From the IMG/VR virus record IMGVR_UViG_2698536477_000007: a stretch of DNA of 35,574 bases; one strand, 5' to 3'. Shown here piece after piece: positions 1 to 35,574 of the stretch (the first letter of the stretch is position 1; every line of letters starts with the position of its first letter). Made by a program: the position numbers and the translations under genes. Below the pieces are notes generated by a model, which was not told where the DNA came from, made no database searches, and saw only the letters and a list, made by a program, of their open reading frames with translations. The stretch is from a virus (lineage: Duplodnaviria > Heunggongvirae > Uroviricota > Caudoviricetes).

Positions 1-993
1 CTAATCGATGGACAGTTTATGGACACTTTCAGCCAGCGGATTAAAGCTGATTGCATCCTGTAAAAAGTCCGGCGAAAAATGCGCATACGTCATCGTTTGT
101 TGAATCGTGGCATGGCCCAGGATTCGTTGTAGCGTAACGATATTTCCGCCATTCATCATGAAATGTGTAGCGAATGTATGACGCATGACATGGGTGGCCT
201 GCCCTTTCGGTAAGTCCGGCTTCACCTCCTGAAGGATCTCCCGAAATCTGAGGTAATCAGCCTGGTACAACAATCCGGTTCTGCGGGTTTTAATTAACGC
301 AAGTACCGCATCAGAAACGGGAACGGCGCGAGATTTTCCGTTCTTGGTGTTAAAGAACATCACGCGGTTACCTACAATATGTTCCCCACGTAAACCAGCT
401 GCTTCACCCCACCTTGCCCCCGTGGAAAGACACAGAATGGCAACACGCCGCGCATCTCCATCGAGTCGTTCAAGCAGTCGTTCAATCTCCTCATCTGAAA
501 GAAAAGCCATCTCTGTGTTCCTGACTTTCAGCTTACGTATTCCCCGAACCGGGTTTTCGTTATGGAACACCTCACCCTCAATCAGCGAGCTGAACATTGC
601 AGACAAGGCACACAAATCGCGGTTAATGCTGGAAGGCATTAACCCGGCCTGTAATTTGTCGGACCGGTACCCGAGCATAAATTTTCGCGTCATCTGACTG
701 GCACGAGGATCACCCATCTCACGGTTTATCTTTTCCAGTCTGACCCTGTAGGTATCCCCGTAATCTTGGTTACGACCATCAAGCAACCACCAGGCCTCTA
801 TCAGTTCGGATAACCGACGCTGATCTGCTGGCTTAGCCTGCCATGGCTTATCATGAAAATTCTGCAAAACATACTTTTCAAACTCCTGCGCCTTTGACTT
901 CAGGGTAAAAATCTTACGAATCCGCTTTCCTTCCGTCCCTTGTGGCCTTACATCAACCTTATAACGTCCGTCTTTGAGTTGCTTAATCGACAT
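1..993 (-). CDS. int: Tyrosine integrase, P2 Int-like
   Basis: Translation MSIKQLKDGRYKVDVRP...ILCLSTGARWGEA...HVMRHTFATHF...LGHATIQQTMTYAH aligns from recall to P2 Int along its length; GGAGGGG ribosome-binding site 8 nt upstream of ATG at 993 (the 1008 start in the ORF track is a longer in-frame alternative). Confidence 0.9.
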   Translation of the reverse strand: MSIKQLKDGRYKVDVRPQGTEGKRIRKIFTLKSKAQEFEKYVLQNFHDKPWQAKPADQRRLSELIEAWWLLDGRNQDYGDTYRVRLEKINREMGDPRASQMTRKFMLGYRSDKLQAGLMPSSINRDLCALSAMFSSLIEGEVFHNENPVRGIRKLKVRNTEMAFLSDEEIERLLERLDGDARRVAILCLSTGARWGEAAGLRGEHIVGNRVMFFNTKNGKSRAVPVSDAVLALIKTRRTGLLYQADYLRFREILQEVKPDLPKGQATHVMRHTFATHFMMNGGNIVTLQRILGHATIQQTMTYAHFSPDFLQDAISFNPLAESVHKLSID

Positions 994-1062
994 GATTAGC
1001 CCCTCCAACGGATAAATTAACCAAACACTCCCTGCGGGATGAAACCCGCTCGATGTGTAACG

Positions 1063-1404
1063 TCAGCCAGCATTGCGGCCTGATCGGGATGATTTTTGGG
1101 TAACGTCGATTGAAGCCTGATCGCCCTCCGACTGAGAAGATCCATCAAGAGAGAGAGCCGGGGCAATTTGCCCGGCGGCAGGTAGCGTCTTATCCTTTAA
1201 CAGCCAAAACATATACTTTTCAAATCGATCTGCCTGAAGAACCGACTCCACGATTTTAGCTCTGGCGCTCTTTTGCCCTGATTCATAATTCCTTACGGTG
1301 GCCAGAGATAACCCTGTAATTTCAGCAAATTGTTTTTGCGTTAAGCCCTCCGCCTTACGTATCTGGCGTAATTTTTCCGCGTAGTCTATTGACAAGATAA
1401 CCAT
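1063..1404 (-). CDS. C: Immunity repressor, P2 C-like helix-turn-helix protein
   Basis: 113 aa; N-terminal segment LTQKQFAEITGLSLATVRNYESG is a helix-turn-helix and ...GQIAPAL... recalls P2 C; sits between int and a divergent gene as in P2. Confidence 0.75.
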   Translation of the reverse strand: MVILSIDYAEKLRQIRKAEGLTQKQFAEITGLSLATVRNYESGQKSARAKIVESVLQADRFEKYMFWLLKDKTLPAAGQIAPALSLDGSSQSEGDQASIDVTQKSSRSGRNAG

Positions 1405-1507: not shown

Positions 1508-2032
1508 ATGCGGGACTTCATTGCCGATAAAGAGTTATCTGACACCGATCACACAACTGGAGCGGCGTACATCAACGCCGATACCAGTCAACAAGAAGCA
1601 ACAGATAACAACGACGAACAAAAGCCACAGCGCACATATAAAAAAGGGGCAACCCTGCGGCTGGATGGCCCAATAGCCGGGCTTTGCTCACTTGAAAAAG
1701 GGGCCGCCTACATCGGATTAACAAAAACAGCATTACGCGCAGCTCTCCAGCGTAACCAGATGCCAGGGCATAAAACCCGCTCAAACCCTGAAGATGAGAA
1801 TTCGGATGGTGTTTGGTGGTTTAACGTCAGAGAGTGGGACAAGCTGGCCGACGAACTCCCGGAATGCGAGCCACCAGAATGGCACAACTGGAAAAGCTAC
1901 TGGACATACGACCGCCAGAAAAGAAAGTTTACCCCGGCTGATAAGGAAGATTGCCAGACCGTCAATGGAAAACGGGTTTACAAAGGCAGAAAGTCAAAGC
2001 TGGAACAGAGCCAGGATGTAAACGAACGGTGA
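1508..2032 (+). CDS. Cox/Apl-position DNA-binding protein (putative excisionase or early regulator), 174 aa
   Basis: Divergent from C; GAGAGG ribosome-binding site; internal helix-turn-helix-like segment LTKTALRAALQRNQMPG; longer than P2 Cox so assignment is positional. Confidence 0.45.
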   Translation: MRDFIADKELSDTDHTTGAAYINADTSQQEATDNNDEQKPQRTYKKGATLRLDGPIAGLCSLEKGAAYIGLTKTALRAALQRNQMPGHKTRSNPEDENSDGVWWFNVREWDKLADELPECEPPEWHNWKSYWTYDRQKRKFTPADKEDCQTVNGKRVYKGRKSKLEQSQDVNER

Positions 2033-2038
2033 TGAACG

Positions 2039-2434
2039 ATGAGCGGCAAAAATAAATCAGAAAAAAACGCAACCGTCCTTAAGCAGTTAAGCCTCCTGAA
2101 AGAGGAACACAAGGACGCCACGATACTGATGCATCTGGAAGGCTCACCGAAAATAACAATCACAACAACCTATAGCGAGTTACACAAAGAGCTTGAAGGA
2201 TTAATTAACTTTTGTTCAAAGCTAAAAGCGAATGAAAACATTGATGACCTGATACTTAAACCAGAAGCAGAGTTCGGACACTTTTGCGAAAGTAGAGAAA
2301 ATGGATGCATCGGAATAATGCTATACGCAACCCGTGGAATAATGATTAATCTGCCCGTTGAGCAGGCTGTGGATATATTCGGAGAAATGGCACTTAATAA
2401 AACCACTATTTACAAAAGCAAAACGACGGAATAA
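2039..2434 (+). CDS. Hypothetical protein, 131 aa, in low-GC island
   Basis: ORF translationally coupled to upstream stop (2030-2032); markedly AT-rich codon composition versus flanking phage genes; no motif recognised. Confidence 0.6.
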   Translation: MSGKNKSEKNATVLKQLSLLKEEHKDATILMHLEGSPKITITTTYSELHKELEGLINFCSKLKANENIDDLILKPEAEFGHFCESRENGCIGIMLYATRGIMINLPVEQAVDIFGEMALNKTTIYKSKTTE

Positions 2435-2454
2435 CCCGGCACGAAGGAGGATAT

Positions 2455-2973
2455 ATGACGATTACACCAGAAGAAGAAGGTATGCATAAGAAATACAGCG
2501 AACACGGGAGTAAGGCTGGCGAAGTAATCGCCATTGATGAGGATTGCCTGATAACAGGAAACCCCTGGCTGGCAACAGAAAGGGATTTAGAAGGCAAAAC
2601 ATTTTTTGTCAGAGCAATAAAGCACAAAGATAGGGTTGTGGGTGGAATTATTTATTCAACCAGTACGATTATTCCTGATAATTATCTGGATATTTCTTTT
2701 AGACCTGTAAGCATTCAGGGGTGCGAGGCATACCTTAATTATGTTGCGGAGCTAAAGGAAATTAACATGGACTACATGTGGCCAATCGTACAACGCGAAA
2801 TAATGCGACGAAAATCAGAAGGCTTCAATGTGAAAATTGAGTTTTTATCGACGTTAATGGGATTTTTACAAAAACCATTGATTCTTTTCCCCTCCCTTGA
2901 CCGGAACCTGCCAGTCAAAGAAGGGGTGGAAAAATATATTGTTGAACAAGTCAGAGATCTGGTTTGTCTTTAG
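2455..2973 (+). CDS. Hypothetical protein, 172 aa, in low-GC island
   Basis: Strong AAGGAGG ribosome-binding site 7 nt upstream of ATG 2455; AT-rich; no motif recognised. Confidence 0.7.
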   Translation: MTITPEEEGMHKKYSEHGSKAGEVIAIDEDCLITGNPWLATERDLEGKTFFVRAIKHKDRVVGGIIYSTSTIIPDNYLDISFRPVSIQGCEAYLNYVAELKEINMDYMWPIVQREIMRRKSEGFNVKIEFLSTLMGFLQKPLILFPSLDRNLPVKEGVEKYIVEQVRDLVCL

Positions 2974-3273
2974 AGGCGCGAATAAAGCACGCAAGATGAT
3001 TAATACTATGAAAGCGTGTCCTTATATTCACGGCATAGGGAGCAAAGGCTTGTTGCCCCTCTATCTGACGCAAAATTTCTGACGCAGTTTTTATCAATGC
3101 ATCCCTTTTATCATCGGGAAGTTCGCTAATGAGGAGCGAAATAAGCAGATCGGACACCACTCCCACTGAGTCTCTTGGGTCGGTCAACTTATCAACAGGA
3201 GCCACAGCAAGATTAGTTGTGTAAATGCTAACCAGGTATTCAGTGATAGCGTCCTTAACGCTTTTATCAATCA
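2951..3273 (-). CDS. Hypothetical protein, about 107 aa, convergent with the 172-aa gene
   Basis: Minus-strand ORF; chosen start MIDKSVKDAITEYL at 3273 has an AAGGT ribosome-binding site; 3' end overlaps 2455..2973 by 23 nt. Confidence 0.45.
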
Positions 3274-3382
3274 TGTTAGTTACCTTTTTTCTGGTTGTGT
3301 GGAAACACCAGAATACCACGCGCCGGGCGTGGTTAAACATCCCGGCACTGATTTTCATTTAACTTAAACGGAGTTTTCCGAT

Positions 3383-3721
3383 ATGACACAGAGACGCAGC
3401 TTCCGCACTGGCACAGAACGCCACGCAGCCCGTTTCTCAACCAGCGCATCACGCAGCAACTCGCACTACAGCCTGCAGGAAACGCACGCCACACCTGACG
3501 GGCATCTGGTTAAACAAACCGGTAAACATACCTGGCTGATTAATGATGCCGGAATTGTCATTCACCGGGGCGCACGCAACCCGATTACCGGAAATACCTG
3601 TTACTCCCTGACTCGCGGAGATGAGCAGTTCGGGCAGGATTTCACCCTGCACGAAGCATTAAGAACGGCAGACCGGTTAATCAGCGGTCGCAGTTTTCAG
3701 CACCCGGAACATCGCCGCTGA
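3383..3721 (+). CDS. Hypothetical early protein, 112 aa
   Basis: ORF with ACGGAG ribosome-binding site; GC content returns to phage background. Confidence 0.55.
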   Translation: MTQRRSFRTGTERHAARFSTSASRSNSHYSLQETHATPDGHLVKQTGKHTWLINDAGIVIHRGARNPITGNTCYSLTRGDEQFGQDFTLHEALRTADRLISGRSFQHPEHRR

Positions 3722-3740
3722 TAAATAAAAGGATTCAGCC

Positions 3741-3983
3741 ATGATCGAAGCCTACAAAATACTTATTAATAATGCGTTGCAGCGTTATCACTTCGAACTC
3801 GCAAACCGGGGGGTAACCCGGGACGAAGGACTTCGTAACTCACTGCGGGGCGCAATTATGGGACTGTATAACTGCGCACTGGGCAGCGATGACCGCGAAG
3901 CACTGGAAGAATTAAAAGTTATTGTGGCCGAACTGTTTGAAGGTGAAATCGTTGAGCCTTATTTCACAGAGGTGGCAGCATGA
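3741..3983 (+). CDS. Hypothetical early protein, 80 aa
   Basis: ORF closely following previous stop; phage-typical composition. Confidence 0.55.
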   Translation: MIEAYKILINNALQRYHFELANRGVTRDEGLRNSLRGAIMGLYNCALGSDDREALEELKVIVAELFEGEIVEPYFTEVAA

Positions 3984-5516: not shown

Positions 5517-5531
5517 GTGATCATCATGCAC

Positions 5532-5766
5532 ACACAAAAAAACCGCTTGCCAGCGTTCGCCTGGTCGGGTTACAGTTTTCCCGCACCTCATAAAACGGGT
5601 GCCGGGTTTCGCAGCCTGCTGACAACCAAAGCGCACAACCGCGCCAGCGGTTTTTTTGTGCGTACTGTATTGCCACGTTTTTTTCGCGTCAGAATTATGG
5701 CGGGGCGTACGGGGCCGACTTCGGTCGGGCCGGGTTCTTTGGTTGCCGGTACTGCGAACCCCGTAC
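5532..5766 (+). other. Structured GC-rich non-coding element (candidate RNA leader or terminator-promoter module)
   Basis: Perfect 15-bp inverted repeat CACAAAAAAACCGCT (5532-5546) / AGCGGTTTTTTTGTG (5645-5659); hairpin plus T7 run at 5636-5656; 9-bp perfect stem CGTACGGGG (5705-5713) / CCCCGTACG (5758-5766) enclosing a cUUCGg tetraloop hairpin (5714-5727); ORFs overlap in all frames here. Confidence 0.35.
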
Positions 5767-5836
5767 GTCTCGCCACCCACAGTTTCGCAGCTCTGGATGG
5801 TGAGTTTTCAAAACTTACAACCAAAGAGGCCACACC

Positions 5837-6064
5837 ATGGCAAACCGCAAGCAACAGCGCGCCCGCGCTGAGCGTCTTCACATCCGCACCGAAATCAACC
5901 GCAGACTCTGGCGCGCATCACGCGTCGCGCAAATCATGCATATCAACATGCTGCATGAGCGCACGCACGCGCTATCAAACCGTTACTGCGCTGCTGTCTT
6001 CAGCTATCTCGCCGAAGATATGGCAGAACTGCAAAGCCTCATCAACCAGCAACACCACCACTAA
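5837..6064 (+). CDS. Hypothetical small basic protein, 75 aa
   Basis: AAAGAGG ribosome-binding site 8 nt upstream. Confidence 0.5.
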   Translation: MANRKQQRARAERLHIRTEINRRLWRASRVAQIMHINMLHERTHALSNRYCAAVFSYLAEDMAELQSLINQQHHH

Positions 6065-6131
6065 ACAACATCCTGAAGCCATCCCGCCCCGTGCGCGGGA
6101 GGCTTCCGCACGTCTGTTACCGGAGGTTCTC

Positions 6132-6548
6132 ATGAAGAGCGTTAAGGGACTTTCAGATATTCAGGACTTTTTTAACTGGATGTGGGCAGTGGATCCCCGG
6201 CTGGCTTCCCGCCTGAACGACTGGCACGACTATTACCGCCGCGCCTGTAAACGGGCCGCCAGACGCGTCACCACATACGGGGATTTCTCCTTCACCGTTG
6301 ACGACCGTTACCGCGTGGACGTGAAAGGTGATGGTGATGGTTTTGGTTTATTTCACATCAACGGAACCGACAGCACCGCCATCAGCTGGTCGTCGTCAGA
6401 GATGACGCTTGTTCTGGAAATGACAAACCACAGCGTGGCCGTGAAAGGTATATACACCGCAGAAGACTTTATCGGTGAATACCAGCGCCTTCTCGTGCTG
6501 TACCGGGCAGCGTTTCAGGCGGCAACTGCCGGGGAGTGCGACGCATGA
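6132..6548 (+). CDS. Hypothetical protein, 139 aa, immediately upstream of A
   Basis: GGAGG ribosome-binding site 7 nt upstream of ATG 6132; stop overlaps A start (ATGA at 6545-6548); the 5' part of the 343-aa track ORF is judged non-coding. Confidence 0.6.
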   Translation: MKSVKGLSDIQDFFNWMWAVDPRLASRLNDWHDYYRRACKRAARRVTTYGDFSFTVDDRYRVDVKGDGDGFGLFHINGTDSTAISWSSSEMTLVLEMTNHSVAVKGIYTAEDFIGEYQRLLVLYRAAFQAATAGECDA

Positions 6549-9064
6549 GCGACCATAACGCACAACTGGCGTACCCGTGGAACGCCCCGCTGCCGGTTAT
6601 CGATCCTGAAACGTTCGGCAGAGCGCAACCAACCGCATTACGCCAGGCCATTCAGAGCTACATCAACGAAGACATTCGCACTGACGCCAGACTGGATGAA
6701 GAAACCGTCGCCTTCCTGACAACCACAGACGAAGGGAAGCGAATTAATTCGCATCTTCATCACGACGAAGAGCGTCGGATCAGACTGGAAAAACTGACGC
6801 GACACAAACGCGAAAATCCACCCACACTGGTATCTGAAGCCATGGCGGAGCTGCGCGCCCTGCCGCCGTTTCTTGCCGGTCCGCTCATCCGGGACCTGGC
6901 ACGCCTGAGCCGCAAACAGGAGAGCGCACGCCGGGAAGGGCTTAAGAACAACAGCGCATACGCGGCGGATAACTTCGTTCGTCACGGGCTGCGTGCCCGC
7001 CTGAAACGTATCGCCCGTGTGAATGAACGCTTTGCCACCCCGGCCTTTAAGGCCACCGCCGCGCGCGAACGGCTGGATGAACTGCTTATGCTGCCGCAGC
7101 TGAGCCGTGACGAAATCCAGCGCCTTGCCACCCTGACCGCCACCGCGTTTTCCACCGCACTGGAGCGCGCATGTGATGAGGTCATCGAAAAGACCGGCAG
7201 GGGTGACGATGACCTGCTCACCTGGTTACTGACCTACCAGCCACTGGCACACATGGCGTTAAAACTGGGTATCACGCCACCCTGCTGGCCGTCGCTGGAA
7301 ATCAGGCCCGACCGCCGCACCGCCCCCGACCCGGAACAGGTGCCGGGTGCGGTCATGCGCCTTTCCTGTGCGACATGGTGGAACAGTCAGTTAAGACACC
7401 TCCGGGACATCTGGCGTGAAGAACTGTTACGCGCCGCAGGTCTGGTGTCACGTAAGACATCGGTATATATCAGCCATGAAGCGTTACTGGACTGGCGCGA
7501 AAAACGCCAGCGCACCCGCGATTTTCTGAAGGCCTGGGACATCGAGAACGAAGAGGGAGAACGGTTCAGCCTTGAGGATATCTACTGGGCAGGTCTCTCT
7601 AATCCGCGTAACCGCCGTAACGAGATGATGGCCTGCGTCCGGGGGATGGAGCAGGTCGCCGAAGCACGCGGCGACGTGGCGTTTTTCGTCACCGTCACAG
7701 CCCCTTCCCGTTTTCACAGCGTGAACGATGACGGCAGTCTGAACCCGAAATACTGCGGGGCAACGGTACGTGATGCCAGTGATTATCTGGTTTACCGCTT
7801 TTTCGCCGCCGTCCGCAAGGCCATCAACAAGGCCGGGCTGGGCTGGTACGGCGTGCGCACCGTGGAGCCCCACCACGACGGTACACCGCACTGGCACATG
7901 CTGGTATTCACCAGCCCGGAAAACGAAGCCCGTATCACTGAAATCATGCGCAACGCCGCCATCAGGGAGGACCGCGCAGAGCTGGGTGATGATATATCCC
8001 CGCGTTTTAAATGCGAAAAAATCGACCCGGCAAAAGGCACACCGGCAAGCTATATCGCGACCTATATCGGTAAGAACCTGGACGCCAGCGCCTTCATGGG
8101 GAATGACCCGAAAACCGGCAAACCTTACGTCGATAAGGAATCAGGCAAAACCATGGCCGAAACCGTGGAGAACGCCATCGGCTGGGCGGCCCTTCACCGC
8201 ATCCGCCAGTTCCAGTTCTTCGGTATCCCGCCCCGCCAGGTATGGCGCGAACTCCGCCGCCTTGCCGGGCAGATGGCCCGTAACCCGACTGCCCCGCAGC
8301 GTCTGGACCATGACGACATTGACGCCATACTGGCCGCCGCCGACGTGGGATGTTTTGCCACCTATATCACCCGCCAGGGTGGTGTGCTCATTCCCCGCAA
8401 CACGTACCTGGTCCGCACCGCATACGAAACTGCCGAAGAGGCCAACGACTACGGCGAATTCCCGCAACGCATTTACGGCGTCCGCGCCCCGTCACTCGGG
8501 GAGCGCTACACCATATGCACCCACCCGGACACCTGGAAACTGGTCAGACGTAAGCCGGAAAACGAAGACCGCACGGACGAGGGTTTTGACGTTGAGTGCG
8601 GCTTTGCCGCACCTTGGACTCGTGGCAATAACTGTCCCCCTGACCAGAATCTGACCATAAACGACCCGCCAGAAAGGCAGCCGGACGGACGCAGGGAGCA
8701 GCGACTTACCCTGCCGGAAGGTGATTTGGGTGAATGGTTAAGGTCACTGACCCCTACAGAGCGAAAACAACTCACCAGGCAGCTGAAAAACCCGCCACCT
8801 GACACGGAAACCGTGAAAAACGGCGGCATCAGTGCGCCCGCTGGCGGCGTTCGCGTGAGTGTCGCACTGACCGCTGAGCCACACATCACCGCACAAATCA
8901 CCCGCGAGCTTGATGCGCTGGGCGTGCAGCTGCATGAAAGCGCCGTCGTTTCCGTCCGTCACGGTGCCCGCGTGCGCCTGGCTGACGGACGCACCGCGTA
9001 CTGGAATGACAGCACCCGCCGCATTGATATCACCCCCGCACCGAATACGGAGGCGCCACAATGA
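6545..9064 (+). CDS. A: Rolling-circle replication initiation endonuclease, P2 gpA / 186 RepA family
   Basis: 839 aa; contains ...GTPHWHMLVF... (HUH-type metal-binding motif of P2 A-like initiators); large early gene in the expected position. Confidence 0.88.
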   Translation: MSDHNAQLAYPWNAPLPVIDPETFGRAQPTALRQAIQSYINEDIRTDARLDEETVAFLTTTDEGKRINSHLHHDEERRIRLEKLTRHKRENPPTLVSEAMAELRALPPFLAGPLIRDLARLSRKQESARREGLKNNSAYAADNFVRHGLRARLKRIARVNERFATPAFKATAARERLDELLMLPQLSRDEIQRLATLTATAFSTALERACDEVIEKTGRGDDDLLTWLLTYQPLAHMALKLGITPPCWPSLEIRPDRRTAPDPEQVPGAVMRLSCATWWNSQLRHLRDIWREELLRAAGLVSRKTSVYISHEALLDWREKRQRTRDFLKAWDIENEEGERFSLEDIYWAGLSNPRNRRNEMMACVRGMEQVAEARGDVAFFVTVTAPSRFHSVNDDGSLNPKYCGATVRDASDYLVYRFFAAVRKAINKAGLGWYGVRTVEPHHDGTPHWHMLVFTSPENEARITEIMRNAAIREDRAELGDDISPRFKCEKIDPAKGTPASYIATYIGKNLDASAFMGNDPKTGKPYVDKESGKTMAETVENAIGWAALHRIRQFQFFGIPPRQVWRELRRLAGQMARNPTAPQRLDHDDIDAILAAADVGCFATYITRQGGVLIPRNTYLVRTAYETAEEANDYGEFPQRIYGVRAPSLGERYTICTHPDTWKLVRRKPENEDRTDEGFDVECGFAAPWTRGNNCPPDQNLTINDPPERQPDGRREQRLTLPEGDLGEWLRSLTPTERKQLTRQLKNPPPDTETVKNGGISAPAGGVRVSVALTAEPHITAQITRELDALGVQLHESAVVSVRHGARVRLADGRTAYWNDSTRRIDITPAPNTEAPQ

Positions 9065-9465
9065 CCCGCTTTTATTGCGCCATGCAGCGACAGCGTTTTG
9101 ACGAACTGATGCGCCAGCGCACGCCCTTACTGACCCTGAACAACATTGCCACGGGGCCACAACCTGGCGATGAGCTGGAAATCACGGTCGTCAGTCCCGA
9201 TCGCACCACCACGGCCATCATCACCGACATACTCAACGGACGACCGGACAGCACTAACCGCAGTTGGCTTGTCGCCGTTCGTCCGCGCCGTCCGCCCGGG
9301 GAGCCGGAGCCGCTCACGCCTGCCGGAAAAATCATGCGGCAGTACCACGAAGAGCAGGCACACAAACACAACGCAGAACTCACCAGAACACTGGCATCGA
9401 TTAACCGAAAAGCGGCAATTGCCCGCTATGTGCATTCGGCCGCCAACAGGCAATCACGCAGGTAA
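9061..9465 (+). CDS. Hypothetical protein, 134 aa
   Basis: ATGA overlap with A stop (9061-9064). Confidence 0.5.
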   Translation: MTRFYCAMQRQRFDELMRQRTPLLTLNNIATGPQPGDELEITVVSPDRTTTAIITDILNGRPDSTNRSWLVAVRPRRPPGEPEPLTPAGKIMRQYHEEQAHKHNAELTRTLASINRKAAIARYVHSAANRQSRR

Positions 9466-9512
9466 CAAAGACCATGAACATAACCAGAAACAGCAAACTG
9501 AAGGAGCACACC

Positions 9513-9668
9513 ATGAACGACATCAGGAGGATCAGCGACAAAGACCTGAAGAAAATGATTGAGTCGGCACAGCAGCTGCTTTCACGACAAAACCCGGTCG
9601 TGGAAGAAACGTGGTGGGAGAATTTACTTGCAGCACTGACCGAACTCCGGGAGCGCCGTCAGCAGTAA
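9513..9668 (+). CDS. Hypothetical small protein, about 51 aa
   Basis: AAGGAG ribosome-binding site 7 nt upstream of ATG 9513; in-frame part of ORF 9474..9668. Confidence 0.4.
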   Translation: MNDIRRISDKDLKKMIESAQQLLSRQNPVVEETWWENLLAALTELRERRQQ

Positions 9669-9741
9669 GGCTGCGCTGGCGCGCCTGATTTTTTCACCGC
9701 AACGCAATTTATTCGCCTGGCACACAAAGGAGAACACCACA

Positions 9742-9906
9742 ATGAACGAACTGTTTATCGCCGTTAAGGGCGCGCTGATTTTTACCATTGCATGGATTGC
9801 TTTAATGGCATTCCTGACGTGGGAAAACCCGTTTCGCCACTTCACAGCAGGCTTTATCGCCAGAATTTATGCGGCAACCGTTGCGGTTATCTGGTTGCTC
9901 TCGTGA
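9742..9906 (+). CDS. Small membrane protein, 54 aa (MNELFIAVKGALIFTIAWIALMAFLTWENPFRHFTAGFIARIYAATVAVIWLLS)
   Basis: AAGGAG ribosome-binding site; two hydrophobic helices; below ORF-track cutoff. Confidence 0.45.
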   Translation: MNELFIAVKGALIFTIAWIALMAFLTWENPFRHFTAGFIARIYAATVAVIWLLS

Positions 9907-10093
9907 CTGAAAGGAAAAAACGTGTGAAAAGAAGACAACTAAAAAAATACAACCCCATGAAATTGAGCAGCATAAAAAAGCGAACATTTAGTACAGACAG
10001 CACAAAAGTTATAAAGATCACTTTTATAGCTTTTGCTGTCTATATAGTAAATGAGATGTGGTAAAAGTTAGTCACTAACCACAAGGAAGAGAT

Positions 10094-10312
10094 ATGCCAA
10101 CACTTATTGGGAAAGTACTACGCCGATACACGGATGCGGTAGCATCACATGTTGATACAAATCTGGAGCAAACAGCAAAATACCGACTTACCGTTGATGC
10201 AAACGGTAATGCGACCCTGAACATTGACAACCCTGAAGTCAAAGCCGACATCATTCGGAAGATGAAATATCTCCAACAGATACATAACCGCACAAATAAG
10301 GATGTTGCTTAA
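10094..10312 (+). CDS. Hypothetical protein, 72 aa, in AT-rich segment
   Basis: AAGGAAG ribosome-binding site 7 nt upstream; preceded by about 190 bp of AT-rich promoter-like sequence. Confidence 0.5.
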   Translation: MPTLIGKVLRRYTDAVASHVDTNLEQTAKYRLTVDANGNATLNIDNPEVKADIIRKMKYLQQIHNRTNKDVA

Positions 10313-10371
10313 TGGCACCACTCATCATCATTTGCAAAGAAAAGCGCCAGCCGCATTCCGTTAAGAGAGCT

Positions 10372-10402
10372 GGTGAGTCGGGGCAAAAATTCTTTTTGCC
10401 CC
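10372..10402. other. Candidate cos site region with adjacent perfect 10-bp stem hairpin
   Basis: GGTGAGTCGGGGCAAAAAT (10372-10390) matches 13 of 19 positions of the P2 cohesive end as I recall it (GGCGAGGCGGGGAAAGCAC); hairpin GGGGCAAAAA-TTC-TTTTTGCCCC at 10380-10402; position downstream of Q-like gene fits P2. Confidence 0.4.
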
Positions 10403-10429
10403 GGCGAAGCAGCAGACAAGCGAAGCGCG

Positions 10430-10693
10430 TCAGGAACGCCGCGACAGAAGTTCAAGCGCATACCGGCGATCTTCCGGGCGCATGGCATCCACCAGGAACT
10501 TCACCATATTGCGACAGGAGCGGGCACCGGGGCTGAGGGTATGGGAAAAGGTCATCGTACAGACGAAGGTGTGCCCGCATTCGACATCACTGCATGCACA
10601 GTAAAGATCCGCAAGTTCAAGGGTTTTCCAGTCTGTCTTCCGGATGACAGCAGGTGCGCCACAGTCCGGACACCGGGCTTTAAAAATCCGCAT
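10430..10693 (-). CDS. ogr: Ogr/Delta-family zinc-finger late transcription activator, 87 aa
   Basis: MRIFKARCPDCGAPAVIRKTDWKTLELADLYCACSDVECGHTF gives C-x2-C-x22-C-x4-C spacing as in P2 Ogr; GGGAGGT ribosome-binding site before ATG 10693. Confidence 0.75.
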   Translation of the reverse strand: MRIFKARCPDCGAPAVIRKTDWKTLELADLYCACSDVECGHTFVCTMTFSHTLSPGARSCRNMVKFLVDAMRPEDRRYALELLSRRS

Positions 10694-10730
10694 CTTACCT
10701 CCCGATAACACGTATCCCGGGGAGGACATT

Positions 10731-11783
10731 TTACCCGACCGGCACCGCTTTTTCTTCCGCCACATGCCCGGCATCCACATCAAAACAAAGATAAAGGTGT
10801 TCCGGTATATCGGGATCGCTGTTCACGGCGTTCATGATTTTACGCTGAAGCGGTATCACCTCATCCTTGCGGTACGTTTCACGCGTCGTCTCCGGGTTAG
10901 GGATGGTGGCCCCGTTCGTGGGGATGATCCCCGCAAGACCGGCAGGAAAACGGTGTGCCGTAAACACATCCTGGGCACTGATCCCCTTGATGTTTGAAAA
11001 TTCATCCTTGGCGCTCACCTCACCAATCGGAATAATTTTCACCCCATCCGGCGAACCTTTGGGGATGTTGATGTACAGATTGCGGAAGTTTCCCAGCCCC
11101 TTAGACTCCGCCACCTTCTCGCGGATCTCATCCTCCATCTCCGTAGTGATCCCCGGGTCGTTCGTATACAGCAAAAACCCCATATGCGCCCCGTTGTTGT
11201 AGTAACGGCGACGAAAAAGGCTGGCCTCGCTGTTCAGCAGCGCCGAGTGAATGCCACCGATATAATCCGGCAGCCCGTAAATTTGCTGACGCGGATCATA
11301 CATCCGCAGAAAGATAATATCTTCCGGCGTATAGACCAGCGCGGGGCCTTCCTGAAGCACCACGAACTCACCGGTTTTGCGGCGCCGGAGATACAGCGAC
11401 GGAAGCGGCTCAAGTGCCACGACGTCGCCGAATACGTTACGCACCTTGAGCAGGGCGAGATCGCCGAACAACAGGTAGTCAAATACCGCCTGTTCCATCT
11501 GGTCCGTTGTGAGACCACCACCGGTATAGCCCCCCGCCACCATGTTACGGCGGGCATACAGCACCCCACCATGCTGGGCGTTAAGGTTCGGGAGCTGCGC
11601 CAGTGCCAGGCGGTTAATCGGCAGCTGCCAGTGGTTGTGTTCGTTGTCATACCAGATGTTATGGTAGTCCGTGCCGGTGGTCAGCACCGGTTCCGGCTGG
11701 CCAAAGGTGATTGTGCTGCCACGTGCGGGCGTGAATGCTTTTTTCGTCACGCGTGACGTTTTGTTTCTGCGTTTCTTGCTCAT
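10731..11783 (-). CDS. Q: Portal protein, P2 gpQ family
   Basis: MSKKRRNK... start; conserved ...LFRRRYYNNGAHMGF... and ...GVKIIPIGEVSAKDEFSNIKG... match P2 Q from recall; ATGA overlap with P stop. Confidence 0.9.
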   Translation of the reverse strand: MSKKRRNKTSRVTKKAFTPARGSTITFGQPEPVLTTGTDYHNIWYDNEHNHWQLPINRLALAQLPNLNAQHGGVLYARRNMVAGGYTGGGLTTDQMEQAVFDYLLFGDLALLKVRNVFGDVVALEPLPSLYLRRRKTGEFVVLQEGPALVYTPEDIIFLRMYDPRQQIYGLPDYIGGIHSALLNSEASLFRRRYYNNGAHMGFLLYTNDPGITTEMEDEIREKVAESKGLGNFRNLYINIPKGSPDGVKIIPIGEVSAKDEFSNIKGISAQDVFTAHRFPAGLAGIIPTNGATIPNPETTRETYRKDEVIPLQRKIMNAVNSDPDIPEHLYLCFDVDAGHVAEEKAVPVG

Positions 11784-13585
11784 GCGGCTTTCCCGAAGGC
11801 CCATGTGGACGGGCGTTCATAGTCATAATCTACAGGCTCATTAATCACGGCGTGCGAAATGGCAAAAAACACATCCGCATGCCCCGTAACATCCGACCGT
11901 TCCGCCACGAACGTCAGCGCGTTACCGCTTTTTGTGGTGGTGCGGCGTATGGACATGAACGACGCGGGGATCTCCGTGCGTTCACGGCTGGCCTCATCAA
12001 TGGCGTCTTTCGCCCACTCGATACGCTTATGGGCCACCACGTCTATCATTTTCATCACCAGGCGGTTTTTGCTCTCCACGCTGTAAAGAATGGCGTTAGC
12101 CTCACGTGGCGCAAAGCGACTGACGATATCAAACACCCCTTTCCCGATACCGGTGATATCTATGCCGATATAGGTAATGTTAAAGCGCTGCATCAGTTCG
12201 CGGATCTGATCGGCCTGCCAGGTGAAGTTAAACCCCTGCCACTGCCAGACGGCGAGCACACGGAACCGCTCGCCTTCATGGACAGGCGGAGCCACAATTA
12301 CAAACGTGGAATTATCCCCGGACCTTGACGGGTCAAAGCCCGCCCACACCTCACGATTGCCGAACGGACGTGCCGCCGTGGGATCGTAGTCACCCCACGT
12401 CTCCATCTCCACCTCGCACCTGACCAGTTCGGAGAACTTAAATACCGCATCCTTGCTGTCAACAAACTCGCAGCCGTACAGCATCGCATAGGTGGTCGGG
12501 TTGTAGAGGTTCCTGATACGTTCAATATCAACCCGTGCAGACAGGCCACCCGCCACCGCCTCTTCCAGCCGGATAATGTAGCGCCAGATCCCGTCAGGGC
12601 ATTCACAGCCCACACGCATCGCGCTTTCTTTCGGAAACTCAACAGCACGACGCGTCGGGTCATCCCCGCGCCAGTCGTCACCGTTCCAGACCAGATAAGC
12701 CTGGTGGGTTTTGGCGCTGGGTGTGGAAAAATACGTCGTGCGGTATTTGTCGTGGGTCGCCATTGCCGAGGCCACTTCATGCAGTCGCGTGAATTTTGGG
12801 ATCCAGAACACCTCATCGCCGTAAAGGTGGCCGTTAAATCCCTGGGCGGTACTGGCATTGGTGGACAGGAAGCGCAGCATTGCACCATTGCTCAGACGGA
12901 TATGCTTACCCGTGAGCGTGATCCCGAACTGCTGGGCGAAATCAATAATATATTCACGGAAGATTTCCGCCTGTACCCGTGACGCAGAAAAGAAAATCTG
13001 GTTATCACCGGTCACCACCGCATCTTCGAACGCCTCCCATGCAAAATACCAGGTCATGCCGATCTGGCGGCTCTTGAGGATGAAACGGCGCTCACGGTGC
13101 CGGTTCTCGCGGCAGTGCAGCTGGTAGGCATAAAGATTTTTACGCGCCCATTCATCCAGCATTTCAGCAGTCAGTCCGGAAACGTCGTTTTTCCGGTAGC
13201 GCCGCTTTTTCCCTTCTCCCCCGCCGCAGGTCCCCGCAGCCGCGCCGTCCTCATACCCTGCCGGACGCAGGGCGGAAATTTCCGCCATCCTTTCAGCGTG
13301 TTTGTTTTTCTGGGCGATGATCTTCACGTGCTGTGCGATAAGTTCACGCAGTTCGGCAAGTTCACACTCTGTCTTGCCCTCCCGTCCGGTCAGCACATCA
13401 ATACGCCGGGCGATCACGTCCTCAACGGATTCGGCGGGCAGCAGGGCGGCCCACTGCCCCACATCACACCAGTGGTAAACCGTGCGCGGCGGAATACCGA
13501 GTTCCGCCGCAATATCGCGGGGGTGCCACCGCTTCAGGTAAAGCGATCGCGCCGCCTCTTTGATTTCGTCAGAATATTTAGCCAT
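11780..13585 (-). CDS. P: Terminase large (ATPase) subunit, P2 gpP family
   Basis: About 601 aa, co-oriented with Q and divergent from O as in P2; start 13585 (MAKYSDE) or 13606 ambiguous. Confidence 0.88.
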   Translation of the reverse strand: MAKYSDEIKEAARSLYLKRWHPRDIAAELGIPPRTVYHWCDVGQWAALLPAESVEDVIARRIDVLTGREGKTECELAELRELIAQHVKIIAQKNKHAERMAEISALRPAGYEDGAAAGTCGGGEGKKRRYRKNDVSGLTAEMLDEWARKNLYAYQLHCRENRHRERRFILKSRQIGMTWYFAWEAFEDAVVTGDNQIFFSASRVQAEIFREYIIDFAQQFGITLTGKHIRLSNGAMLRFLSTNASTAQGFNGHLYGDEVFWIPKFTRLHEVASAMATHDKYRTTYFSTPSAKTHQAYLVWNGDDWRGDDPTRRAVEFPKESAMRVGCECPDGIWRYIIRLEEAVAGGLSARVDIERIRNLYNPTTYAMLYGCEFVDSKDAVFKFSELVRCEVEMETWGDYDPTAARPFGNREVWAGFDPSRSGDNSTFVIVAPPVHEGERFRVLAVWQWQGFNFTWQADQIRELMQRFNITYIGIDITGIGKGVFDIVSRFAPREANAILYSVESKNRLVMKMIDVVAHKRIEWAKDAIDEASRERTEIPASFMSIRRTTTKSGNALTFVAERSDVTGHADVFFAISHAVINEPVDYDYERPSTWAFGKAA

Positions 13586-13751
13586 GCGCCCATTATGGCG
13601 GCGCATCCGGCCCGCATTCAGGCAGAAAATTTCGGCTGTGTTCGGCTATCCCGCGTTATCCGAAGGCAGCCGAATTCAGCCAGTAGCCCCCCGCTGTAAA
13701 AATCCCGACACTCACCGGAGTTCTTCAGATTTTCACGTAAAAGAGGCCACG

Positions 13752-32790: not shown

Positions 32791-32955
32791 TAAAAGGTAA
32801 ATTACGCGCGGGTGCCTTTCGGCTGACGGCTGGAAGGAATACCTGAAGGCCGGATGTGAAAAGGCCCCGAGTCAACTAACGTTAACCCGAGGCCCTGACA
32901 CTTCCTACCTGACAAGTGGAAGGTTAGCGCCTCCCTGTAAAAGGAGTCAAGCGCT

Positions 32956-33096
32956 ATGCCGCAAAAAACGATCATAGTGAGCATTTTATGCATAACTATT
33001 TTGATGATTGTCTGGATGATACACACGTCACCGTGTGAGTTCAGGCTTAACATCATGTGGTCAGAATTTGCGGCGTTCTTGCAGTGTAAACAGTAA
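32956..33096 (+). CDS. hok: Hok-family type I toxin peptide, copy 1 (46 aa)
   Basis: MPQKTIIVSILCITILMIVWMIHTSPCEFRLNIMWSEFAAFLQCKQ: single transmembrane helix, conserved LCIT, C-E and E-x-AAF spacing of Hok/Gef; AAGGAG ribosome-binding site 10 nt upstream. Confidence 0.75.
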   Translation: MPQKTIIVSILCITILMIVWMIHTSPCEFRLNIMWSEFAAFLQCKQ

Positions 33097-33185
33097 GAAA
33101 CCGCAGCGGGGGTGAAAGCCCCCGCTATCCGGTTGCCGGGTTCGGCTGATATGGCACCCTTTTGGGTTAGCGTACTGACTTCATT

Positions 33186-33210
33186 GCCCGCAATATGCGG
33201 GCTTTTTTTT
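33186..33210 (+). terminator. Rho-independent terminator at end of hok unit 1
   Basis: GCCCGCA-ATA-TGCGGGC followed by T8. Confidence 0.6.
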
Positions 33211-33427
33211 GCCGTCTCCCCTCAACAGCTTCAATACTGAGCATTGCGCACACAAAGGGAAATCAGTAAATTACATGCGGGTGCCTTTCGGCTGACGACT
33301 GGAAGGAATACCTGAAGGCCGGATGTGGAAAGGCCCCGGAGTCAACTTTAATGTTAACCCGAGGCCCTGACCATCTACCCTAAGCAAGTGGAAGGTTAGC
33401 GCCTCCCTGTAAAAGGAGTCAAGCGCT

Positions 33428-33568
33428 ATGCCGCAAAAAACGATCATAGTGAGCATTTTATGCATAACTATTTTGATGATTGTCTGGATGATACACAACT
33501 CACCGTGTGAGTTCAGGCTTAACATCATGTGGTCAGAATTTGCGGCGTTCTTGCAGTGTAAACAGTAA
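33428..33568 (+). CDS. hok: Hok-family type I toxin peptide, copy 2 (46 aa)
   Basis: Identical to copy 1 except T24N (MIHNSPCEF). Confidence 0.75.
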   Translation: MPQKTIIVSILCITILMIVWMIHNSPCEFRLNIMWSEFAAFLQCKQ

Positions 33569-33658
33569 GAAACCGCAGCGGGGGTGAAAGCCCCCCGCTA
33601 TCCGGTTGCCGGGTTCGGCTGATATGGCACCCTTTTGGGTTAGCGTACTGACTTCATT

Positions 33659-33683
33659 GCCCGCAATATGCGGGCTTTTTTTT
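33659..33683 (+). terminator. Rho-independent terminator at end of hok unit 2
   Basis: Same hairpin and T8 run as unit 1. Confidence 0.6.
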
Positions 33684-33900
33684 GCCGTCTCCCCTCAACA
33701 GCTTCAATACTGAGCATTGCGCACACAAAGGGAAATCAGTAAATTACATGCGGGTGCCTTTCGGCTGACGGCTGGAAGGAATACCTGAAGGCCGGATGTG
33801 GAAAGGCCCCGAGTAAAACATTTGTTTAACCCGAGGCCTAACCCTTCCTACCCTAGACAAGTGGAAGGTTAGCGCCTCCCTGTAAAAGGAGTCAAGCGCT

Positions 33901-34041
33901 ATGCCGCAAAAAACGATCATCGTGAGCATTTTATGCTTAACCATGTTGTTGACCGTCTGGATGATACACCGTTCTCCGTGTGAGTTCAGACTTAACATCA
34001 TGTGGTCAGAATTTGCGGCGTTCTTGCAGTGTAAACCGTAA
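33901..34041 (+). CDS. hok: Hok-family type I toxin peptide, copy 3 (46 aa, diverged)
   Basis: MPQKTIIVSILCLTMLLTVWMIHRSPCEFRLNIMWSEFAAFLQCKP; several substitutions relative to copies 1 and 2. Confidence 0.7.
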   Translation: MPQKTIIVSILCLTMLLTVWMIHRSPCEFRLNIMWSEFAAFLQCKP

Positions 34042-34132
34042 GAAACCGCAGCGGGGGTGAAAGCCCCCGCTATCCGGTTGCCAAAGGTTCGGTCGAAAGT
34101 CGCACCCTCACACAAAAGTCACAAAGAAAAAC

Positions 34133-34281: not shown

Positions 34282-35574
<1,293 letters not shown>

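Follow-up and report, generated by a model that had tools for sequence, protein, structure and literature searches.

What kind of element is the AT-rich island that follows cox in the early operon of a P2-like Escherichia coli prophage: a single accessory system, a set of unrelated passengers, or a diverged part of the core early program? We addressed this question in IMG/VR virus record IMGVR_UViG_2698536477_000007, a stretch of 35,574 nucleotides (the window hereafter), in which three short genes, here called orfA, orfB, and orfC, lie directly downstream of the gene for a Cox-family regulator and upstream of an early gene of the DUF4761 family. Comparison with related loci makes it very likely that the island is an accessory mosaic of two modules directly downstream of cox, one being orfA and the other orfB together with orfC. 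The features on which this turns are as follows, with protein lengths in amino acids (aa).

2039-2434, plus strand: orfA, 131 aa, orphan
2444-2450, plus strand: Shine-Dalgarno sequence AAGGAGG of orfB, 4 nucleotides ahead of the ATG at 2455, read from the sequence
2455-2973, plus strand: orfB, 172 aa, orphan
2951-3274, minus strand: orfC, 107 aa, orphan, convergent with orfB; a coding sequence in RefSeq
2951-2973: overlap of the orfB and orfC 3' ends, 23 bp, from the gene coordinates
2442-3285: exchangeable orfB/orfC module, 844 bp, absent between 99% identical flanks in one relative (L002)
3286-3382: conserved intergenic segment ahead of DUF4761, kept at 99% identity where relatives have other cargo

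RESULTS

Exchange of cargo between cox and DUF4761

The L002 locus (strain 2013C-3033) matches the window at 99% identity across 1400-2441 and across 3286-3800, with no match between these blocks; at the position of 2442-3285 it carries 211 bp with an unrelated 64-aa reverse gene. The same neighboring early genes occur without orfB in L003, L004, and L005 as well as in L002, and orfA is found without orfB/orfC in L002 and in L015 to L018. Because identity breaks sharply at 2441/2442 and at 3285/3286 and each part occurs without the other, orfA and orfB/orfC are treated here as two modules. At least eight cargo arrangements were found at the junction of cox with the next early gene, counting the orfA, orfB, and orfC of the window. 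The others are as follows.

orfA and the 64-aa reverse gene
truncated orfA and the 64-aa gene
a 136-aa reverse gene and a 77-aa gene
a single 64-aa forward gene
a divergent orfB (orfB') and a 99-aa gene
a fusion gene (L009)
a 77-aa gene with distant orfB and orfC (L010)

Five of the alternative cargos were measured, and all are AT-rich, with a G+C content (GC) of 0.38 to 0.43; no alternative cargo has a Pfam or PHROGs match that assigns it a function. No flanking direct repeats of note surround the cassette, and insertion by a mobile element was rejected as an explanation on that ground.

These comparisons agree with the initial annotation of this DNA in part. It had asked whether the cassette is variably present at a conserved insertion point, and there is indeed a fixed point between cox and DUF4761, with at least seven other arrangements. 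Nor are these genes shared by all relatives as known early functions: the complete 844-bp orfB/orfC module is present in 3 of 5,426 complete E. coli genomes, 23 of which have the DUF4761/DUF4754-type early region. Its description of a compact three-gene cassette has to be revised, in that orfA and orfB/orfC exchange separately and only orfB and orfC recur together (in L010), and its reading of the low GC as a mark of recent acquisition is not supported, as the acquisition cannot be dated and low GC is general for cargo at the cox-DUF4761 site. Variable presence and deviant base composition are both found, and the feature behaves like phage accessory (moron-type) cargo; its absence from close relatives suggests that it would be dispensable for lytic growth and lysogeny. 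The families of orfA, orfB, and orfC are new, while the kind of feature to which they belong is ordinary.

A convergent gene pair retained through divergence

The orfB/orfC pair recurs in L010, a 5,954-bp contig from an unrelated sample (Logan SRR24146886), where the gene order is Cox (89 aa), a 77-aa gene, the remote orfB homolog P0011, a reverse orfC homolog, and a Toprim primase. The orfC homolog is 32% identical to that of the window over 90 aa (E = 2e-7) and shares an invariant VSDxLISLLISEL core, and P0011 is 19% identical to orfB (hhalign probability 95.6). The two genes are convergent in L010 as well, with 3' ends that overlap by 38 bp, and orfA is absent from this locus. As far as the aligned loci tell, the convergent, overlapping orfB/orfC layout has survived divergence to 19 to 32% identity and a change of all flanking genes, which orfA has not. 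The orfC protein is small and probably helical. The 64-aa reverse gene that stands in place of orfC in L002 was considered as a possible orfC relative and rejected, the sequences being unrelated.

The L010 contig has some unusual features of its own. It combines a P2-type repressor and Cox switch with a reverse Ogr/Delta gene and an 897-aa Toprim primase that replaces gpA, and P2-like and P4-like parts may have been joined in it; similarity to known E. coli phages (92% to ESSI2_ev239) is confined to its integrase/repressor end.

The diversity of cargo described above suits another explanation, in which orfA, orfB, and orfC are three independent orphan morons, the post-cox site is merely permissive, their functions are unrelated or inconsequential, and the adjacency of orfB and orfC is hitch-hiking. 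Many unrelated small cargos do occupy the same site, none with a family match that assigns a function; the ratio of nonsynonymous to synonymous substitution rates (dN/dS) of orfB is fairly high, at 0.3 to 0.7; orfA is truncated in some relatives, and orfB' is deleted in L009. However, hitch-hiking alone would hardly keep the orfB/orfC layout, including the 3' overlap, at 19 to 32% identity amid different flanks, and dN/dS values below 1 show selection on the orfA and orfB proteins. We regard independent morons as a rather unlikely alternative. Judged by this conservation of arrangement, orfB and orfC probably constitute a functional pair.

Mosaic structure of orfB and its partner genes

Homologs of orfB comprise P0001 to P0004, in addition to the remote P0011; sequence identity of orfB to homologs is 88%, 58%, and 54%, with the dN/dS values given above, and the homologs directly follow four different cox types. 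The protein has a conserved N-terminal half (approximately residues 10 to 105) that is predicted to be beta-rich and a variable C-terminal half of four helices. In the AlphaFold2 (AF2) model (predicted local distance difference test score [pLDDT], 64), the helices spanning residues 90 to 169 are confident and there is no N-terminal helix-turn-helix (HTH).

P0003 and P0004 belong to two other P2-like prophages, where they immediately follow cox. These prophages occupy other attachment sites (beside ppa and prpC), encode different integrases together with Cox proteins of 141 and 93 aa, and carry neither orfA nor orfC. The first 105 residues of P0003 and P0004 are 73 to 78% identical to those of the window orfB (84 to 90% at the DNA level), and their C-terminal 67 residues just 24 to 27%; for P0003, 75 of 96 residues are identical in the N-terminal half (78%) and 18 of 67 in the C-terminal half (27%). 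Downstream of both, a codirectional 99-aa gene takes the place of orfC, and comparisons of this gene with orfA, orfB, and orfC found it unrelated to each. Since the C-terminal half diverges and orfC is replaced by the 99-aa gene in the same loci, the 3' half of orfB changes in concert with the gene downstream. A different segment has been exchanged in L011, where only orfB codons 36 to 105 differ (19.5 nonsynonymous and 8.5 synonymous differences) and identity to the window is ~99% in cox, orfA, and orfC.

L009 (positions 2999-3322; E. coli JNEC-KY171) is a natural in-frame fusion of the first 21 codons of orfB' to the 99-aa partner gene from codon 14 onward. The join lies where the two sequences are briefly similar (GSKAG/SGKSG, then VVV), and nearly all of orfB' has been deleted; because this in-frame deletion joins the orfB' start to the 99-aa gene, the partner can persist without orfB. 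No locus with orfB but no partner gene was seen among the loci compared, which is at most an indirect hint of a toxicity that the partner neutralizes.

The size of orfB and its place in the early operon are, according to annotation, similar to those of P2 gpB (166 aa, a replication helper) and 186 CII (169 aa, lysogeny establishment), and its homologs follow four cox types, so that orfB might be a diverged core early function and the counterpart of one of these. Profile comparison gives hhalign probabilities of only 0.4% for gpB and 0.2% for CII, both below 1%, there is no PHROG match, and the model lacks an N-terminal HTH; moreover, orfB is missing from relatives that are otherwise 99% identical around it and cannot be essential for this phage type. 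We rejected both identifications, and an origin of orfB in a core early function is highly improbable.

orfA as a separate module

By its distribution among the loci compared, orfA is a module in its own right that is linked to a 174/175-aa type of Cox, as it was seen only behind this long Cox form. Comparison with the 85%-identical allele in L015 gives a dN/dS of 0.19. The synonymous divergence (dS) between these orfA alleles is 0.37, against 0.057 for the adjacent cox, and this gap is another sign of mosaicism. The AF2 model of the orfA protein was unusable (pLDDT, 39.7).

A short motif is common to orfA residues 100 to 114 (GIMINLPVEQAVDIF), orfB residues 147 to 161 (SLDRNLPVKEGVEKY), and P0011 (LLDRTLPVEEALAKW). 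A relationship between orfA and orfB was considered and rejected; the NLPVxxx motif occurs in both, but the hhalign probability is only 1.9%, which is not significant.

Composition and coding status

All three genes are to be taken as real on comparative grounds, because orfA and orfB both have dN/dS values below 1 and distant homologs exist for orfB and orfC. The layout proposed from the sequence, with proteins of 131 and 172 aa and a convergent gene of about 107 aa overlapping the 3' end, was recovered at the positions listed above, as was the perfect AAGGAGG ribosome-binding site of the second gene. The full minus-strand open reading frame (ORF) of orfC spans 2951-3358, and the RefSeq start in an identical E. 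coli record, at 3274, yields the 107-aa protein; we accepted this start because the distant homolog aligns from residue 7 and because the DNA upstream of 3286 is common to loci with a nonhomologous reverse gene.

The claim of an AT-rich island likewise stands, in that sliding-window analysis gave a GC of 0.411 for 2039-3290 against 0.555 for the window, the lowest value of all 1,252-bp windows (minimum at 2041; mean, 0.557; standard deviation, 0.048). GC is 0.396 in orfA, 0.403 in orfB, and 0.435 in orfC, with 0.505 in the neighboring cox and 0.560 in DUF4761.

The three proteins are predicted to be soluble and mildly acidic (isoelectric point, 5.3 to 5.8). No membrane-spanning hydrophobic segment is predicted in any of them, which disfavors a block of phage entry at the membrane. 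No Rfam match was found within 2039-3290, and an RNA gene inside the cassette was rejected accordingly.

Homology and literature searches

The statement that none of the three proteins carries an assignable motif was upheld by profile searches, with no usable family match for orfA, orfB, or orfC in Pfam, NCBIfam, PHROGs, or PADLOC. In PADLOC-DB v2.0, orfA and orfB had no match and orfC matched only GajB, at a level that we consider noise (E = 0.017, 11.8 bits). Searches of PDB sequences with the orfB profile, orfA, and orfC found no relative, and a tblastn search of 50,697 phage records with orfA, orfB, orfC, and P0011 found no match. A word-indexed search of 5.8 billion proteins returned close E. 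coli relatives only. Cluster look-ups gave every copy as a "hypothetical protein" of E. coli, from a few hundred contigs of public assemblies, and in several assemblies orfA, orfB, and orfC have consecutive accession numbers.

When the orfB profile was run exhaustively with HMMER against 1.84 billion representative proteins, P0011 was the sole credible new relative; two further matches are repetitive proteins and were judged spurious. Profile and pattern scans for orfB and orfC in species-representative genomes, IMG/VR, and Joint Genome Institute metagenome contigs were empty. The literature searched contained no description of a cox-proximal cargo site or of the orfA, orfB, and orfC proteins.

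Early-operon setting and expression

The window is a segment of E. coli chromosome with a complete P2-like (Peduoviridae-type) prophage. An identical stretch is carried by E. coli JNEC-KY172, where dmsA lies left of the integrase gene, and the prophage is integrated between dmsA and serS. Its main landmarks are as follows.

1-1008, minus strand: integrase, left of the repressor
1063-1404, minus strand: HTH immunity repressor
1508-2032, plus strand: Cox-family regulator, 174 aa, the left anchor of the cassette (Pfam Phage_Cox; phrog_23196, transcriptional regulator, E = 3e-95; "Cox family DNA-binding protein" in RefSeq)
3383-3721, plus strand: DUF4761 early gene, the right anchor (Pfam PF15958, E = 5e-48)
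6536-9064: gpA replication endonuclease, preceded by DUF4761, DUF4754, and further small early genes
10731-13606, minus strand: portal and terminase, then structural genes
34282-35574, minus strand: host gene serS, at the right end of the window

The early region of P2 and 186 is annotated as an operon from cox/apl to A. It is read as one transcript from a promoter beside cox/apl to A and is repressed in the lysogen. With integrase, repressor, and cox upstream and DUF4761, DUF4754, and later gpA downstream, the cassette lies inside a P2-type early operon, and the location given by the initial annotation, which places the three genes inside the early operon, is correct.

The Cox protein here is an unusually long form, with 174 aa or about twice the length of P2 Cox (a 276-bp gene). 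The Pfam Phage_Cox domain covers only its residues 59 to 130 and is flanked by an acidic N-terminal and a basic C-terminal extension.

No promoter-like site was found on the plus strand ahead of orfA or orfB, and no terminator-like site was found in 2000-3400, including the DNA between and near orfB and orfC. A conserved element accompanies the junction. Within 3286-3382, a dyad, CCACGCGCCGGGCGTGG, occupies 3316-3332; the conserved dyad, CCAYGCGCCGGGCRTGG, has flanking GCCGGG and TTAAA blocks and stands just upstream of the next early gene. It is present in 11 loci compared (3032-3048 in L004), with a single compensatory stem change, from C-G to T-A, and L010 has a diverged copy in the same position, upstream of the primase (~2040-2075), which has been kept though the neighboring proteins are only 19 to 32% identical. 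The dyad is absent from loci with forward cargo only (L005 and L006). No run of T follows it on the plus strand. A sigma-70 promoter in the dyad region was considered and rejected, as the candidate -35 sequence TTTAAC is conserved but the -10 is not. The dyad is possibly a regulatory element, and an operator, an RNA hairpin, or a recombination linker are candidate roles.

This setting bears on two further explanations. The first, put forward in the initial annotation, is a single three-gene antiphage defense or superinfection-exclusion system expressed from the prophage. In its favor are the AT richness, variable presence, and prophage location of the region, and cargo in the interval between integrase and gpA is not unprecedented, since a 2026 survey assigned 8% of P2-like prophage defense systems to that interval (PMC13586616). 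Against it, orfA is separable from orfB/orfC; orfA and orfB, in a repressed early operon and with no promoter-like site of their own, should be silent in the lysogen; and the three proteins have no PADLOC match, no membrane segments, and no enzymatic, ATPase, or nuclease domain. We consider such a system very improbable.

The second is that orfA and orfB encode early counter-defense or host-takeover proteins, comparable to 186 Fil and Dhr, anti-restriction, or anti-CRISPR proteins, and that orfC is a regulator or an unrelated lysogenic-conversion gene. The two genes come first after cox in the early transcript, the ribosome-binding site of orfB is strong, and the nonessential fil and dhr are annotated in a similar place in the early operon of 186; the proteins are small, soluble, and mildly acidic, and turnover is rapid, with one orfB segment replaced. 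Yet there is no similarity to known anti-defense proteins or to the early proteins of 186 and P2, the cassette has no aca-like HTH gene, and the continued association of orfC with orfB is left unexplained. We judge this explanation quite unlikely.

Other features of the prophage

In the early region, tandem Rfam matches at gathering level were obtained on the plus strand to the Hfq-binding small RNA isrK (5583-5657, 65.9 bits) and to the C4 antisense RNA (5693-5780, 87.1 bits). Both fall within a spurious 343-aa ORF (5517-6548), and two RefSeq annotations, an "ash family" pseudogene and a gene for a "derepression protein", overlap the RNA matches or lie just downstream of them. The stretch resembles RNA-based control modules of the P1 c4/P4 type, here placed in a P2-like early operon.

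The interval between gpA and the portal gene (9064-10731), the canonical defense hotspot of P2, holds, apart from an Ogr/Delta-like zinc-finger ORF (10430-10783, minus strand), only small ORFs of 134, 64, 54, and 72 aa, and no recognizable defense system was found there. Beyond the right end of the prophage and before serS, a 473-bp tandem repeat occupies 32797-34082 (2.7 copies, 94% match), each copy with an ORF of ~85 aa that starts with MMLSLNSHG.

DISCUSSION

How the pair might work

In this study, we characterized a variable cargo site behind cox in a P2-like prophage. The best explanation overall is an accessory mosaic of orfA and orfB/orfC in which orfB and orfC are an antagonistic pair, and we favor it tentatively, with a confidence that falls a little short of even. 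Under this explanation, orfA and orfB would be made solely from the early transcript, at infection or induction, since they have no promoter-like site of their own and the early operon is repressed in the lysogen. Transcription of orfC would come from the other strand and oppose the early transcript, which makes expression in the lysogen, when that operon is off, the most plausible, and the transcripts of orfB and orfC would be mutually antisense, given that no terminator-like site lies between them. OrfB would be an early effector that acts on the host or on a competitor, and OrfC would bind or counteract it through the variable helical C-terminal domain of OrfB, so that the pair would serve phage-host or phage-phage conflict and not core phage development. 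Taken as a mechanism, the effector/antidote relationship between OrfB and OrfC is unlikely. A broader proposal, which we rate as unlikely, is that orfB/orfC represents an undescribed, antisense-coupled two-gene phage conflict module, whether of effector and antidote or of sensor and effector, that would function in superinfection or host takeover, with OrfC expressed in the lysogen and OrfB early in lytic growth and the two matched through the variable C-terminal domain of OrfB, and that the cox-proximal site would be an unrecognized, dyad-marked hotspot of miniature conflict genes in this P2-like lineage.

Several observations weigh against an antagonistic pair. Its convergent orientation is atypical of known toxin-antidote pairs, and the pairing rests on just two independent lineages and one variant lineage. 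A convincing sigma-70 promoter for orfC was not found in the sequence scan, and conservation of a candidate -10 does not extend to L004 or L010. An LDxxLPxxE motif is common to the C-terminal domains of all orfB homologs, which by sequence are diverged alleles and not different domains, and the break in the middle of orfB could be a mere place where homology allowed crossover.

Significance

The chief interest of this locus is the small convergent orfB/orfC module together with the swapping of an orfB domain along with its partner. If orfB and orfC are a working pair, they would add a very small, domain-less module with an unusual convergent and overlapping layout to the known phage conflict genes, and the cox-proximal site would be worth mining beyond the gpA-gpQ and tail-gene hotspots of P2-like prophages. 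Practical importance is currently modest. At a more general level, the locus demonstrates that well-studied coliphage types still carry orphan families with almost no relatives among 1.8 billion representative proteins, and that a "cassette" read from sequence alone can prove to be two independent modules.

Comparison with known systems

The classical accessory positions of P2-like phages are the gpA-gpQ interval (old, tin, and many defense systems) and the G-FI interval (Z/fun and neaT) (PMC9122126, PMC3573123). The cassette lies at neither of these but between cox and DUF4761, upstream of gpA. The morons of P2 (old, tin, and Z/fun, with neaT in a CFT073 prophage) are nonessential, variably present, AT-rich, and often opposite in direction to the flanking genes, and they occupy fixed permissive sites (PMC9122126, PMC3573123); the description also suits orfC and the alternative reverse gene of 64 aa. 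Unlike these morons, the cassette stands directly after cox in the early operon, two of its three genes are cooriented with that operon, and its proteins are much smaller, with no recognizable domains and no match.

The fil and dhr genes of 186, which follow apl and cII, are annotated as small, dispensable, promoter-proximal genes of the early lytic operon that are expressed only in the lytic cycle and act on the host, and orfA and orfB are placed similarly. PHROG searches gave no similarity (fil and dhr were not compared directly), and neither fil nor dhr has a partner on the opposite strand. Rapid turnover of cargo at one fixed locus between core genes also recalls the defense hotspots of P2-like and P4-like phages (Rousset et al. 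2022; NAR 2026 gkag898), but the main hotspot described for P2 is gpA-gpQ, and the cargo of the cox site has no match to known defense families (PADLOC for the window; Pfam and PHROGs for the others).

A further parallel in architecture is with toxin-antidote and polymorphic effector-immunity cassettes. Type II toxin-antitoxin genes are adjacent and cotranscribed, whereas orfB and orfC are convergent and not cotranscribed; no homology to type II toxin-antitoxin families was found in Pfam, NCBIfam, or PADLOC, secretion-related and toxin domains are absent, and the C-terminal variants of orfB are still homologous to each other. What the locus shares with such cassettes is an OrfB with a conserved N-terminal and a variable C-terminal part, a small partner that is exchanged along with the C-terminal part, a partner that can persist alone, and a larger gene, orfB, that is not seen alone.

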